From: an uncultured Monoglobus sp.
Lineage (GTDB): Bacteria > Bacillota > Clostridia > Monoglobales > Monoglobaceae
Direction: 5' to 3'
Assembly: GCA_947624305.1 (NCBI GenBank)
Contig: CANQKC010000019.1
Location: 23,658-55,657, forward strand
DNA length: 32,000 bases
Made by a program: the position numbers and the translations under genes. Below the pieces are notes generated by a model that searched no databases, was not told the DNA's origin, and saw nothing but the letters and a program-made list of their open reading frames with translations. This document shows, one piece after another, positions 10,677 through 13,931 of this stretch; within the stretch, counting starts at the first letter, position 1; each line of letters starts with the position of its first letter.

Positions 10677-10712
10677 AAAGCCGAGAGAACCGCTGGAGCC
10701 CTCTCGGCTTTT
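10676..10712. terminator. bidirectional terminator between the fructosamine kinase gene and the small peptide gene
   Basis: Stem aaaagccgagag / ctctcggctttt, 13-nt loop, flanking A and T runs. Confidence 0.8.
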
Positions 10713-10716
10713 AATT

Positions 10717-10890
10717 CTATTGCGCGCTATAGATGTCGCTCCATTTTTTGCTGCCGGCGGGCACATATGTGCCGCTTTCGTTAAGTTGTTTGCTGAGCGA
10801 CGTGGGAGTATTGCTGTCGGTAATAACGTCCGCGCACTCAAACACGGTGATCTCCGCAACGGGAGCTTTATATTCTTTTATATTTCTCAT
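10717..10890 (-). CDS. small hypothetical peptide (57 aa), no signal peptide
   Basis: AGAGGAGAG RBS about 8 nt before the ATG at 10890. Sequence MRNIKEYKAPVAEITVFECADVITDSNTPTSLSKQLNESGTYVPAGSKKWSDIYSAQ. Ends at a bidirectional terminator. Confidence 0.55.
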   Translation of the reverse strand: MRNIKEYKAPVAEITVFECADVITDSNTPTSLSKQLNESGTYVPAGSKKWSDIYSAQ

Positions 10891-10925
10891 AATTATTTCT
10901 CTCCTCTCTGTTATTGATCCGCCGA

Positions 10926-12041
10926 TTATTCGGCAGGTGCTTTCCATGCATCTTCAATGTTTACCCAATTGCTTTCATTAACCGTACCTTTTATAGACGT
11001 TTCGGAAAAAATAATATATCCGTCTTTGGAAACATACGGCTTAGCGGTAATTCCATTAGAAAAATCTCCCTTTGCTATATCATAAACTTCACCGTAAAAT
11101 CCATCCCCGTTAAGGTTTTGATCGGTATAGCTTTTTACTATTCTTCCATTAAGAATGTTGTTGTCCGCGTCGATAAACACAAATCCGTAGCCGTCCGCTT
11201 CTCCGCTGTATTTCTGGAAAAACCTGATTACACCTTTTGGATCACCCTCTTTTTTATCATTTTCATAATAAATTCCCGAAACAAAATCGTTCTCATTTGT
11301 TGTAAGCGTAACATCCGTGGGCGCGTCAACACTTTCGTGATAGTCAATTGATACACTATAAATGAAAACCTCATAATCCCAAGTAAGCTCAATTGATTTT
11401 GCGGATAAATTTCTAAAAATTATTTCATCAGGATCAGTTTTTTTACTGTTGCCTTCTTTTTGCGTATAGTTTTTAATTTCTTCCCCAGGACTCCCGTCAC
11501 TGACATCTTTTGCAGTTAAAACAGTTTCTTTATCACTTGTATTATCGTCATTGTACACAAATATTAAATCATAACTTTTATAATTACAATCTTCCGGCAG
11601 TATATTATTAATTTTTAAATATGTATTCGCAACAGAGCTTACTACATAACCGGGATCGCCTTTAGTGGTTCCGTGATGTTCATGTTCAGTATGCGGTAAA
11701 TCAAAATCGTGTTGAGTAACCTCCCAGCCTCTGTCGACTTTCTCTGATACACCATTGGGAATTTCTATTGTAACATTATCAGCGAAGCTTTCCACAGAAT
11801 GACTTATAGTTTTGTAGGATTCAAGATCAGTTGTTACAATTCCGGTAGTGTTATGGAAAGTCCAATTGATATAGTTTGCATTTGTGGAAGCAAACGGTTC
11901 GGCATAGCCATCCGCAGTTACTTCCGCGGCGCTGGCGGCCATGGGGAGCGCGAGGGTTGTAATAATCACTGTTATAACAGTGAGAAGAGATATTAATTTA
12001 CCCCCCCCCGATTTAAAATTTGACATTTTTCTTTTTCTCAT
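10926..12041 (-). CDS. secreted hypothetical protein (371 aa), AT-rich gene with a G9 tract in codons 11-14
   Basis: Signal peptide ...LISLLTVITVIITTLALPMAASAAEV. His cluster HTEHEHHG. GC is far below the neighbouring genes. No family recognised. Confidence 0.75.
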   Translation of the reverse strand: MRKRKMSNFKSGGGKLISLLTVITVIITTLALPMAASAAEVTADGYAEPFASTNANYINWTFHNTTGIVTTDLESYKTISHSVESFADNVTIEIPNGVSEKVDRGWEVTQHDFDLPHTEHEHHGTTKGDPGYVVSSVANTYLKINNILPEDCNYKSYDLIFVYNDDNTSDKETVLTAKDVSDGSPGEEIKNYTQKEGNSKKTDPDEIIFRNLSAKSIELTWDYEVFIYSVSIDYHESVDAPTDVTLTTNENDFVSGIYYENDKKEGDPKGVIRFFQKYSGEADGYGFVFIDADNNILNGRIVKSYTDQNLNGDGFYGEVYDIAKGDFSNGITAKPYVSKDGYIIFSETSIKGTVNESNWVNIEDAWKAPAE

Positions 12042-12099
12042 TGTTGTTCCCTTTCTTTCTTAAAAATTTTATATTATTTATTTTTTCGTGGTTTGTGTT

Positions 12100-12149
12100 T
12101 ACCCCTCTCCGTCAGGCTTTGCCTGACACCTCTCCCCAAGGGGCGAGGC
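12100..12149. repeat. modular GC-rich repeat, short form (conserved ends plus a variable hairpin)
   Basis: The ends tacccctctccgtc and ccccaaggggcgaggc are identical to those at 17531-17544 and 17648-17663. The internal hairpin is gtcaggc-ttt-gcctgac. Confidence 0.8.
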
Positions 12150-12151
12150 TC

Positions 12152-12283
12152 GGGCGGGCGAGTCGTCCGCCCCTACGGCATACATGGATTTTGTCCAATT
12201 TCCGGTGTAGGGCGGCATGCCCACATGCCGCCGCGGGCGGATAATATCCGCCCCTACGGGACGTCGAGGGCGCCGTCCCCTAC
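12152..12283. repeat. cluster of four REP-like hairpins, each abutting a CTAC/GTAG foot
   Basis: Units at 12152-12176, 12207-12232 (gtagggcggcatgcccacatgccgcc), 12233-12257 (gcgggcggataatatccgcccctac) and 12258-12283 (gggacgtcgagggcgccgtcccctac). Confidence 0.85.
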
Positions 12284-12331
12284 GAAATAAGGTGGGTTTT
12301 TGCCCGAACGGACAAAAAGTCGGGTGAGAAG

Positions 12332-12376
12332 CCTATTCGCTATTCGCTAATCCCTAATCACTACGTTGCTACGTTG
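12332..12376. repeat. short tandem array: 4 x 7-mer then 2 x 8-mer
   Basis: The minus strand reads CAACGTAG CAACGTAG T GATTAGG GATTAGC GAATAGC GAATAGG. Confidence 0.8.
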
Positions 12377-12379
12377 ACA

Positions 12380-12542
12380 TTTTGTTTTGGCAGGAGCGTC
12401 GTTTTTAAAGTTAAACTCCGTCAGCGCCGCTTGGTTTTTTACGGTTGGTTGATACGGCGCCCCGATGGTGCGGGTTTTCGGGAGCAAGAAAGGAATTCAG
12501 TGGATACTTTCTCTTATGAATGGCGCTCCTGCCAAAACAAAA
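12380..12542. repeat. 163-bp element bounded by perfect 19-bp inverted repeats (candidate invertible switch, MITE, or long-stem RNA)
   Basis: Left arm ttttgttttggcaggagcg at 12380-12398 is the exact reverse complement of 12524-12542. The 125-bp core contains three internal hairpins. Confidence 0.85.
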
Positions 12543-12554
12543 CGCTTTTAATAT

Positions 12555-12588
12555 ACGAAAAAACCCGAGGCGGATACGCCTCGAGCCC
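12555..12588 (-). terminator. intrinsic terminator ending a ~160-nt leader or small RNA
   Basis: Minus-strand RNA CUCGAGGCG-UAUC-CGCCUCGGG followed by UUUUUU. The one non-Watson-Crick position is U-G on the minus strand but C-A on the plus strand, which supports the minus orientation. Confidence 0.75.
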
Positions 12589-12625
12589 AGCATATCCGCA
12601 GTCCGGTTATGGCTGATTTGCGGAT
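12564..12625 (-). promoter_or_regulatory. attenuator-like switch with three mutually exclusive helices
   Basis: H1 pairs 12619-12625 with 12594-12600 (AUCCGCA/UGCGGAU). H2 pairs 12593-12599 with 12570-12576 (GCGGAUA/UAUCCGC). H3 is the terminator stem, 12577-12585 with 12564-12572. H2 shares bases with both H1 and H3. Confidence 0.5.
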
Positions 12626-12723
12626 AAAATAAAACGCATCAAGCTCCCGCCTCACCATAGGCGGAAACCGATGCTACCCAACATTAATTAAAATATAATC
12701 AACGAATCAAATCAACCAACTAT

Positions 12724-12752
12724 ATATTAGCATAATTAAAAAGTGTTGTCAA
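12724..12752 (-). promoter_or_regulatory. orphan near-consensus promoter with no adjacent CDS
   Basis: Minus strand TTGACA (12747-12752), 17 nt, TAATAT (12724-12729). The next CDS on this strand starts about 680 nt downstream at 12041. Confidence 0.6.
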
Positions 12753-12804
12753 TGGTTTTTTTGAGAAAATATATTAAAATTTTGTTTTATTCTTAATTAT
12801 TATA

Positions 12805-12835
12805 TGCAAAAGCAAGCGGCTCAAACGAGCCGCTT
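12805..12835 (-). terminator. intrinsic terminator after leuB
   Basis: Stem aagcggctc / gagccgctt, 4-nt loop, then GCUUUUGC on the minus strand. Confidence 0.75.
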
Positions 12836-12851
12836 AACTCTCATATTTTAA

Positions 12852-13931
12852 TTATCCTATATATTTTACTATTATGTCGCCCATCTCTTTGGTTCCGAGA
12901 AGCTTTCCGCCCTCGTCCATTATGTCGGCGGTTCTGTAGCCGTCGTTCAGGACCTTTGTCACCGCGTCCTCGATATCCTTCGCCTCGTCCATAAGGCTGA
13001 AGCTGTCGCGCAGCATCATGGCGCAGGACAGGATCGTGGCGATCGGGTTCGCGATGTTTTGGCCCGCAATATCCGGCGCGCTGCCGTGGATAGGCTCATA
13101 CATGCCGAGGGTGGTGCCGCCGAGCGATGATGAGGGCAGCATTCCGATCGAGCCGGTCGTCATGCTCGCCTCGTCGGAGAGAATGTCGCCGAACATATTC
13201 TCGGTCACAATAACGTCGAACTGACCGGGGTTCCTCACAAGCTGCATCGCGCAGTTGTCAACGAGCATGTCGGAATACTCAACCTCGGGATATTCCTTGG
13301 CGAGCTTGTGCATCGTCTCGCGCCACAGTCTTGAAGTCTCGATAACGTTGGCCTTGTCAACGCTTGTTACCTTTTTGCGGTCGCGCTTCATCGCAAGCTC
13401 GAACGCGACTCTGCCTATTCTCTCGATCTCGCTTACCGAATATTTAAGCTCGTCATAGGCCTCCTCGTTTCCGGTCGTCTCGTTGCGTCTGCCTCTGTCG
13501 CCGAAATACAGGCCGCCGGTGAGCTCGCGCACGATAACCAGGTCAAGACCGCCCTCCGAGATCTCGGGCTTGAGCGGACACGCTCCGGCGAGCGCGTCAT
13601 GCAGCTTCGCGGGTCTGATGTTGGCGAACAGGCCGAGCTCGGAACGCAGACCCAGCAGAGCCTTCTCGGGTCTTAAATGTCCGGGCAGGGTGTCCCACTT
13701 GGGGCCGCCGACCGCGCCGAGAAGCACCGAGTCGGAGGCCTTGGCTATCTTCACCGACTCCTCGGGCAGAGGAACCCCGGTCTCGTCGATCGCGCAGCCG
13801 CCCGCCAGAATGTCGGTATACTCAAAGGTGTGGCCGTATTTTTCGCCGATCTTGTCGAGGACTTTTTCTGCCTCGGTAATTATTTCGGGGCCTATTCCGT
13901 CGCCTTTTACTACTGCTAATTTAATGTTCAT
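12852..13931 (-). CDS. leuB: 3-isopropylmalate dehydrogenase
   Basis: 359 aa. Motifs [48 protein letters not shown]. Confidence 0.95.

Follow-up and report, generated by a model that had tools for sequence, protein, structure and literature searches.

This analysis concerns a stretch of non-coding DNA on the minus strand of an uncultured Monoglobus contig, CANQKC010000019.1, from which a 32,000-nucleotide (nt) piece was analysed; we call that piece the window, and coordinates given without a locus name are positions in it. Judged by its sequence, the stretch at 12553-12760 is a divergent paralogous copy of a promoter-plus-leader module belonging to a lineage-specific cassette for secreted proteins. 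Every such leader that can be followed far enough is accompanied by a second structured element, here called the mirror, and in each cognate pair the hairpin loop of the leader and a small loop of the mirror carry the same short word, which changes from one cassette to another. The reading that we consider best, and to which we would give about an even chance, is that the element is an attenuating leader that lets some transcription through, with an RNA that docks on the cognate mirror. An earlier note on this DNA had seen in it an orphan promoter driving an unassigned riboswitch, attenuator or small RNA (sRNA), and much of what follows bears on that proposal too.

A family of leaders and their mirror elements

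In what follows G000 is the source genome, G008, G009, G013 and G015 are sister Monoglobus species, and C-numbers denote cassettes. A blastn search with a second copy of the leader recovered about ten copies in G000 and others in G008, G009, G015 and G013. A covariance model built from nine of the G000 leaders (model R2) gave 24 matches, comprising those nine and 15 in G008, G009 and G015, with no match in the 13 remaining species of the genus. All leaders of the family start with the same motif, of consensus GGUUG-N3-9-GUUGAUUA, which is unpaired in the consensus fold. Typically an A-tract and a TTGACA-17-TAAAAT promoter with the additional TG precede a leader that starts with AGUGGUUGAAAAUGUUGAUUAG and runs into a consensus hairpin of 17 pairs, with G.U at several positions, a UCAUGG loop and then U6-7. 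Because many of its pairs are G.U, the strand on which this hairpin forms is fixed, and a UGG-containing hairpin loop together with a U-tail is common to all the cassette leaders. Past the terminator, a typical cassette continues with a ribosome-binding site (RBS), GAGAAGG, and a small open reading frame (ORF) of about 28 codons that contains a G-run; there follow some 600 nt of repetitive extragenic palindrome (REP)-like modules, a conserved 75-nt gene-proximal untranslated region (UTR) and then the gene itself, whose product begins MRKRRILSLLLAVAV...ASA and varies thereafter, over lengths of 376-874 amino acids (aa). Behind the big gene, a gene for a 56-59-aa peptide is present in at least three G000 cassettes besides that of the window, and the cassette ends with more REP-like modules and an inverted copy of the mirror, with a bidirectional-looking terminator in C31, C11b and C13. 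Searches of Pfam and NCBIfam with the cassette secreted proteins and the peptide returned only Big_2, in three proteins.

The window leader belongs to this family by homology. Its promoter spacer and flanks align with those of paralogous cassette promoters (blastn, 75% over 71-72 nt, E 7.7e-5 and 2.6e-6), the homology to both C30-type and main-type leaders covers the promoter region and the 5' motif, the hairpin has a UGG loop and a U-rich tail, and the secreted-protein and peptide genes behind it are paralogous to those of the other cassettes. The copy has no equivalent of the paralogues' small ORF, and carries an extra terminator, which we call T2. The description of the promoter as an orphan does not survive this comparison, since promoter and 5' motif have homologues in a paralogous cassette, and the leader in fact opens a 2.1-kb cassette whose 371-aa secreted protein is 47% identical to that of cassette C11b (E 2e-106).

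Across 121 genomes of the family and a species-genome collection, leader and mirror are confined to five rabbit-gut Monoglobus species. In the species genomes the family motif occurs in Monoglobus metagenome-assembled genomes and in a single chance Vibrio match, and exact-pattern scans of metagenome contigs gave no match to the window-specific form of the motif and two chance matches to the family form, which fit neither model. As a separate observation, GUUGGUU is found at the head of the transcript, a few bases past the -10, for strong promoters at a tRNA cluster and at a ribosomal-protein operon (an L7Ae-like gene, then rpsL) in another genus of the family (L018:560-640, L019:1501-1560 and L020:1501-1580).

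The mirror, for which we use the label R1, is a multicopy structured element of about 145 nt that is absent from Rfam, found nine times in G000 and, over four species taken together, 24 times (in G000 at L021-L029, one example being L021:1501-1641 on the minus strand; in G008, G009 and G015 at L035-L050). It occurs only in genomes that bear leaders, lies 2.4-4.4 kb downstream of every leader whose contig extends far enough, and sits just inside the terminator that closes the transcription unit in the three G000 cassettes that were read closely, C31, C11b and C13. It is closed by a clamp of 23 bp, in which compensatory changes are seen at 18 of the 23 pairs and the inner AGCGCGRGC is conserved; 96.6% of the clamp cells are paired, where shuffles give 80.7% and sliding the partner gives 32-44%. 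Only 2 of 610 cells are G.U and 8 are A.C or C.A, a ratio that hints weakly at the gene strand as the strand that folds. Within the clamp stand a hairpin whose loop is the 20-nt motif (UGGUUGGUUCGUUGAUUAG), a small hairpin whose loop contains UCAUGG, and a box, GAGAAGGGAUUCA, that is the cassette RBS sequence. The interior thus repeats the three landmarks of the leader in the same order, set among surrounding stems that are unrelated to those of the leader. Read on the gene strand, R1 presents anti-RBS, anti-loop and anti-motif, an order that means all three boxes could pair with the 5' end in register.

Each leader matches its own mirror in the loop. The shared word is UCAUGG in C11a, C11b, C29 and C9 (and in C31, where R1 has UCAUGA), UCUUGG in C13, G9_C8 and G15_C4b, UCAAGG in C2, UGUUGG in C30 and G8_C8, AUGGUG in the window, and, in G013, UUUGG in C46 and GGUUG in C31. 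When the longest common words of the cognate pairs are summed they come to 67, a total reached by none of 20,000 permuted pairings (seven variants), a figure that is not a true probability in that the cassettes are related; even with kinship allowed for, the matches require no fewer than four substitutions made in step at two sites that lie 0.2-4 kb from each other. Wholesale gene conversion is an unlikely source of the match because the stems that flank the matching loops are unrelated. A third site complementary to the loop was seen in one cassette only, before the peptide RBS. The mirror is inverted with respect to the leader in all 19 pairs of G000, G008, G009 and G015, and likewise in the window and in cassette C31 of G013 (L127:1497-1658).

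In the window itself, the mirror occupies 12380-12542, described on the plus strand, and is closed by a perfect 19-bp clamp (12380-12398 with 12524-12542). It adjoins the leader on the downstream side, and is not at the 3' end of the transcription unit as it is in the paralogues. The plus-strand interior holds a hairpin with the motif in its loop, the small hairpin CCCG-AUGGUG-CGGG and then an RBS-like box, AAGAAAGGAAUUCA; on the minus strand, the same features read as an anti-RBS (12500-12482), an anti-loop CACCAU (12470-12465) and an anti-motif, AUCAACCAAC (12453-12444). By eye, this succession of motif loop, UGG hairpin and RBS-like box is colinear with R1, and the element is the best match in the window to R1 (15.2 bits, E 0.05) and to a further model, R3 (21 bits, E 6e-4), in both cases through the clamp stem alone. 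Model R3 also aligns the window leader, at 12728-12639, to the R1 interior (10.9 bits). The first ten nucleotides of the leader motif, 12720-12711, find a perfect complement at 12453-12444, the leader loop, whose hexamer AUGGUG reappears in the mirror, finds a 6-nt complement at 12470-12465, and the anti-RBS of the mirror is complementary to the RBS of the gene.

Promoter and fold of the window leader, and the riboswitch proposal

The promoter of the window leader (12724-12760, minus strand) consists of an A-tract, a -35 TTGACA at 12752-12747, a 17-nt spacer and an extended -10, TGcTAATAT, at 12732-12724. With 10 of 12 hexamer matches and the extended -10 TG, it is the top promoter-like site within 11800-13000, and TTGACA-17-TAATAT has the form of a sigma-70-type promoter (hexamers 16-18 nt apart, with the extended -10 TG), from which a transcript start is predicted. 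The earlier note had picked this near-consensus promoter out correctly, and there is indeed no RBS-bearing ORF directly behind it. At the predicted start lies the GU-rich bipartite motif (12695-12720, minus strand), GUUGGUUGAU...CGUUGAUUAU, and the UGAUU repeats reported before lie there (12720-12695; TTGRTT in the wider form). The nested hairpin that was said to follow them is likewise present, at 12674-12636; it is our T1 (12624-12674, minus strand, with its tail), a hairpin of 15 pairs formed by 12674-12660 with 12651-12636, with the loop UAUGGUGA at 12659-12652, and it is followed by GUUUUAUUUU, the U-rich tail being GUUUUAUUUUAU at 12635-12624. As a hairpin with a U-run, T1 is a predicted intrinsic terminator, and T1 with its tail corresponds to the one hairpin and U-tract that family leaders have. 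Next comes a segment that is specific to the window (12558-12625, minus strand), containing helices HA and HB and the terminator T2 at 12588-12561, with U6 at 12563-12558. The latter was previously given as a 9-bp stem with U6 and is counted by us as 12 pairs, 7 of them GC; as a GC-rich hairpin followed by U6, it too is predicted to terminate. The 168-nt leader RNA as a whole folds at -71.3 kcal/mol, compared with -46.4 +/- 3.7 kcal/mol for dinucleotide shuffles (z -6.7, with 0 of 200 shuffles equal), and the strength of the fold exceeds chance.

The earlier note had gone further and proposed that this segment holds mutually exclusive helices, with the middle one as antiterminator, in the manner of a ligand- or protein-controlled attenuator. 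The helices are real as pairings: AUCCGCA/UGCGGAU (12625-12619 with 12600-12594) and GCGGAUA/UAUCCGC (12599-12593 with 12576-12570) are each perfect over 7 bp, they overlap as described, and in the full RNA the conformer with the middle helix (-71.3 kcal/mol) and the one in which the compact terminator is enforced (-70.4 kcal/mol) are nearly isoenergetic. Where the proposal breaks down is in treating them as on and off states. The middle helix is part of a longer hairpin of 17 pairs (12608-12562), which abuts the U-run, so that both conformers put a hairpin directly against the U-run and neither would relieve termination. The 3' domain folded alone prefers helix A with the terminator, at -29.6 kcal/mol.

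Neither does the comparison with relatives help a ligand-sensing riboswitch or a classical three-helix attenuator, which we regard as having hardly any chance of being right. The suggested search of Rfam with cmscan assigned no family: nothing in the 32-kb window or the 11 related loci reached the gathering score, and the interval 11900-12900, searched at E up to 10, gave only chance-level hits far below gathering; there is no conserved aptamer-like core either. The alternative pairings are not conserved in homologues, for about 25 related leaders, which have a single hairpin and a U-tract, lack anything that corresponds to 12625-12561, and no orthologue was found elsewhere, blastn of the whole leader against 40 relatives returning the shared promoter and the first ~25 nt only. 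The gene family, moreover, encodes surface or secreted proteins without assigned function and offers no metabolic link. The element is not a metabolite-sensing riboswitch. What does hold of the earlier proposal is its general idea of a promoter-driven, non-coding, structured leader with terminal terminators.

Several other candidate identities were considered and rejected. There is no cas, IscB or TnpB gene nearby, as would go with a tracrRNA (trans-activating CRISPR RNA) or omega-RNA; 6S, signal recognition particle and transfer-messenger RNAs are rejected on the negative Rfam result; a miniature inverted-repeat transposable element with terminal inverted repeats does not agree with a clamp whose outer ends are its variable part; and an integron attC site would need a GTTRRRY core and an array, neither of which is present.

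How the leader might work, and what weighs for and against

We think that the docking leader would operate in the following way. Transcription would start at about 12720 from the strong sigma-70-type promoter, and the first ~25 nt, the GU-rich motif, would stay single-stranded while the next hairpin displays the cassette-specific UGG loop, an arrangement that the consensus fold of the family shows and that is predicted for the window copy too. Most transcripts would end at T1 and its U-rich tail, or at T2 behind it, and those that remain would cross the spacer of about 500 nt to reach the gene, the only one that follows. Such read-through is suggested because, between leader and gene in the window and upstream of the gene in C31, the single paralogous cassette that was scanned, there is no strong promoter other than that of the leader. 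The leader RNA, whether released as a short terminated product or still attached to a read-through mRNA as its 5' end, would dock on the cognate mirror, where a long clamp stem would hold out, on the same strand, sequences complementary to motif, loop and RBS. The common motif would provide affinity and the loop would provide specificity for the cassette, while the anti-RBS of the mirror would link docking to translation or decay, and could thereby set mRNA stability, access to the RBS, or both. We infer the docking step from the co-variation of the loops and the colinearity of the complementary boxes.

The same promoter and terminators would also suit a stand-alone trans-acting sRNA of ~85 or ~165 nt, with the GU-rich 5' end as its seed and the mirror or CA-rich mRNA sites as its targets, leaving the gene to a weak promoter of its own. 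A strong private promoter, efficient-looking terminators (T2 has a GC-rich stem of 12 pairs and U6) and a 5' seed followed by a terminator hairpin make up a typical sRNA architecture; complementary sequences occur both in the mirror and ahead of the RBS; REP-like modules, which are usually found between transcription units, occupy the stretch up to the gene; and some 30 nt before the RBS a TAATAT that resembles a -10 is conserved. We nevertheless think an independent sRNA unlikely. The proximal promoter-like site is weak, having no -35 and 9 of 12 matches, and the RBS and small ORF that stand right behind the leader terminator in the paralogues would be pointless without read-through. Leader and gene are also inherited and lost together as a 2.1-kb unit, and the base of the family hairpin is rich in AU and GU pairs, as in leaky terminators. 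Among known sRNAs, those of the GcvB type, in which a GU-rich seed targets CA-rich sites, are of comparable design. Like GcvB, the leader has a single-stranded GU-rich 5' segment and a terminator hairpin, with CA-rich complementary tracts upstream of the RBS and in the partner; unlike GcvB, to which it has no sequence relation, it forms part of the DNA of one gene cassette and is inherited together with that cassette.

A number of observations weigh against the docking leader, and we set them out together. The motif is constant across cassettes, and the energies of the motif-mirror duplexes are not cassette-specific; in the window, the duplex comes to -18.6 compared with -14.7 +/- 2.6 for shuffles, of which 36 of 500 are as good, a marginal result. 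The first half of the motif may perhaps be a general promoter-proximal feature, and the TAATAT at 12076-12071 could drive the gene independently of the leader. The G.U-poor clamp of the mirror fits a DNA palindrome equally well, unlike the G.U-rich hairpin of the leader. In cassette C46 of G013 the mirror (L125:803-954) lies between the 821-aa gene and the peptide gene in direct orientation, which makes leader and mirror identical, and not complementary, on one RNA. What is strictly conserved is therefore the sameness of the two modules rather than their complementarity on the same strand, and C46 fits a shared trans-acting factor or a role at the DNA level better than it fits RNA-RNA pairing. 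The narrow distribution of the family and the divergence of the window copy limit the weight that the case can bear: the strict model R2 does not match the window leader (12553-12720) at E up to 1 with filters off, and since the mirror is matched through its clamp alone, the window copy is a distant relative that could be decaying. Beside these points stands a test of the direction of transitions, meant to reveal G.U tolerance between leader and mirror; its count of 57 against 43 does not discriminate, as the alignments run into non-homologous stems.

A reading at the DNA level would have a DNA-binding protein or a recombinase recognise the motif and loops, and would make the clamps the inverted repeats of a segment that can flip, so that operators or crossover sites would switch the surface protein. 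We rate this as quite unlikely, although several observations speak for it. The motif occurs in both orientations, and G013, the only genome to show both, has mirrors facing either way in two different cassettes; the clamp arms are near-perfect Watson-Crick partners (99 double changes, only the 2 G.U), with the inner 10 bp (AGCGCGRGC) conserved; a short identical core at two partner sites is just what site-specific recombination requires; and surface-protein families of gut Clostridia are often phase-variable, with the leader G-runs of 6, 9, 10 and 12 suggesting that one switch is already in place. Set against this, the loop flanks differ wholly, being CUUAUCCGC/GCGGGUAGG in the leader and CUC/GAG in the mirror, which excludes them as shared arms for a recombinase. 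In 9 of 9 G000 cassettes gene and leader lie on one strand, no flipped state distinguishes orthologues among the 19 uniformly inverted pairs, and the contigs of four rabbit-gut runs showed neither joints at leader or mirror (12380-12760 in the window) nor any informative variation. The mirrored homology begins exactly at the predicted transcript start and not at the promoter, and the G.U-rich leader hairpin is an RNA signature.

The flgB and cwpV switches of Clostridioides difficile, which are invertible DNA segments flipped by RecV, offer a comparison. As in those switches, a surface-protein gene has in its leader ~100-125 bp flanked by inverted repeats, and the family looks phase-variable. 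The differences are that there is no recombinase gene nearby, though no search for one was made, that no flipped form appears in contigs or between orthologues, that the outer halves of the repeat arms vary freely with complementarity kept, and that the interior contains no promoter.

Decay offers another way of looking at the window copy. It could be the degenerate leader of a cassette that was recently acquired or rearranged, in which T2 and the adjacent mirror are products of rearrangement without a regulatory role and the G9 tract alone governs expression; the failure with model R2, the missing small ORF, the atypical place of the mirror and the strain-specificity of the cassette would all be in keeping with such a relic. 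We find it improbable. The promoter is still near-consensus, the fold is far stabler than that of shuffles, and motif, loop and anti-loop match perfectly within the window though they are unlike those of all paralogues, which argues for continued selection. In rabbit-gut DNA contigs the region is present in the source sample, and a contig of a second study carries 12464-12723 with one change.

The closest precedents for the docking leader are the icaR mRNA of Staphylococcus aureus (PMC3868564) and the hbs mRNA of Bacillus subtilis (PMC5737220), in which pairing between the 5' UTR and the 3' UTR of one mRNA controls translation and access of RNase. As in these, an element at the far end, in the paralogues, complements sequences of the 5' leader, including an anti-Shine-Dalgarno box; anti-RBS, anti-loop and anti-motif are colinear on the sense strand, and cognate loops co-vary. 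Unlike icaR and hbs, the Monoglobus relation is drawn from sequence comparison alone, the pairing would be modular, with three boxes on a 19-25-bp clamp, and some ten paralogous cassettes have matching loops of their own; the window keeps its partner in the 5' UTR beside the leader, and one G013 cassette has a direct partner.

With the intrinsic-terminator leaders of Firmicutes, the element shares a promoter, a short leader and a hairpin with a U-tract before the gene, and in the paralogues an RBS and small ORF nearby. Unlike Firmicutes attenuators, it has no convincing antiterminator alternative and no Rfam match to T-box, riboswitch, PyrR, TRAP or LicT-type elements, and the small ORF of the paralogues comes after the terminator, not before it. 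The element belongs to neither the icaR/hbs type of pairing nor the ordinary terminator-leader family.

A bolder version of the docking leader would have each cassette mRNA recognise its own two ends through a private RNA "handshake" with an anti-RBS platform, tuning its stability or translation independently of the other cassettes. We put this forward tentatively, as a somewhat unlikely possibility. A family-wide, co-evolving code of pairing between 5' and 3' UTRs (or, in the window, within the 5' UTR) is undescribed in bacteria. If true, it would be a rare case of long-range recognition between UTRs in bacteria and the first to be organised as a code across a gene family with cassette-specific loops; it would govern the fast-evolving surface or secreted proteins of a gut specialist, a likely interface with diet, host or phage, and the seven loop versions would amount to natural compensatory variants. 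If the pairing is not real, a false riboswitch candidate has still been removed, and two uncatalogued, lineage-restricted structured elements that annotation pipelines missed have been defined.

The cassette in its genomic setting

Upstream on the same strand lie a leuA/cimA-like synthase gene, leuC, leuD and leuB, a cluster that ends at 12852 with a terminator of its own. Behind the leader come about 500 nt with no ORF, holding the inverted-repeat mirror at 12380-12542 and REP-like hairpins. The spacer and gene-proximal 5' UTR (12042-12379, minus strand) contain REP-like modules, a CA-rich tract, an A/T-rich tract with the TAATAT at 12076-12071, and the RBS at 12061-12046; the final ~75 nt before the start codon are homologous across all cassettes, and within them is a weak promoter-like TAAACA-17-AATAAT at 12071-12101 (minus strand), to which that TAATAT belongs. 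The secreted-protein gene follows at 10926-12041 (minus strand); its 371-aa product has a signal peptide, is a paralogue of the C11b cassette protein, and found no Pfam or NCBIfam match. The cassette closes with the 57-aa peptide gene (10890-10717) and a terminator at ~10712-10680, a stretch (10678-10890, minus strand) that also marks the end of the 2.1-kb indel. That indel, ~10678-12812, is a single unit made up of promoter, leader, gene and peptide gene. It is absent from G015, where leuB is 97% identical and the leuB terminator abuts a convergent fructosamine-kinase gene (L055:2150-2230); in G009, which is 98% identical, valS follows leuB. The source genome is that of an uncultured rabbit-gut Monoglobus.

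Some further features of the cassettes deserve mention. The small ORF of the paralogues, which reads MKRRQNYESYTQNVPFSDIxRGGV... and has its own RBS, lies at L080:835-925 in C31, with equivalents at L088-L111. The length of its G-run varies between orthologues, with G6 in G000 C29 as against G9 in G015 C3, G9 in G000 C31 as against G12 in G015 C4, and G10 elsewhere; in the window, the same G9 module is found within the coding start of the gene (12009-12001). Cytoplasmic-looking peptides of 56-62 aa that contain TEFECxDVIT, for which neither Pfam nor NCBIfam gave a match, form a family encoded behind the secreted-protein genes of several cassettes, in the window at 10717-10890 (minus strand) and at L080:3446-3625, L082:2657-2827 and L125:574-762 (minus strand). 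Divergently upstream of the C30 promoter, a ParE-type toxin gene (84 aa, PF05016) stands beside a 112-aa ORF (L002:898-1471, minus strand). Finally, the REP-like modules of the window (12066-12413) reach a summed contig depth of 100-490 in rabbit-gut runs, compared with 3-6 for their flanks, and many contigs join differing modules, which points to modules that are highly repeated and recombined across the community.

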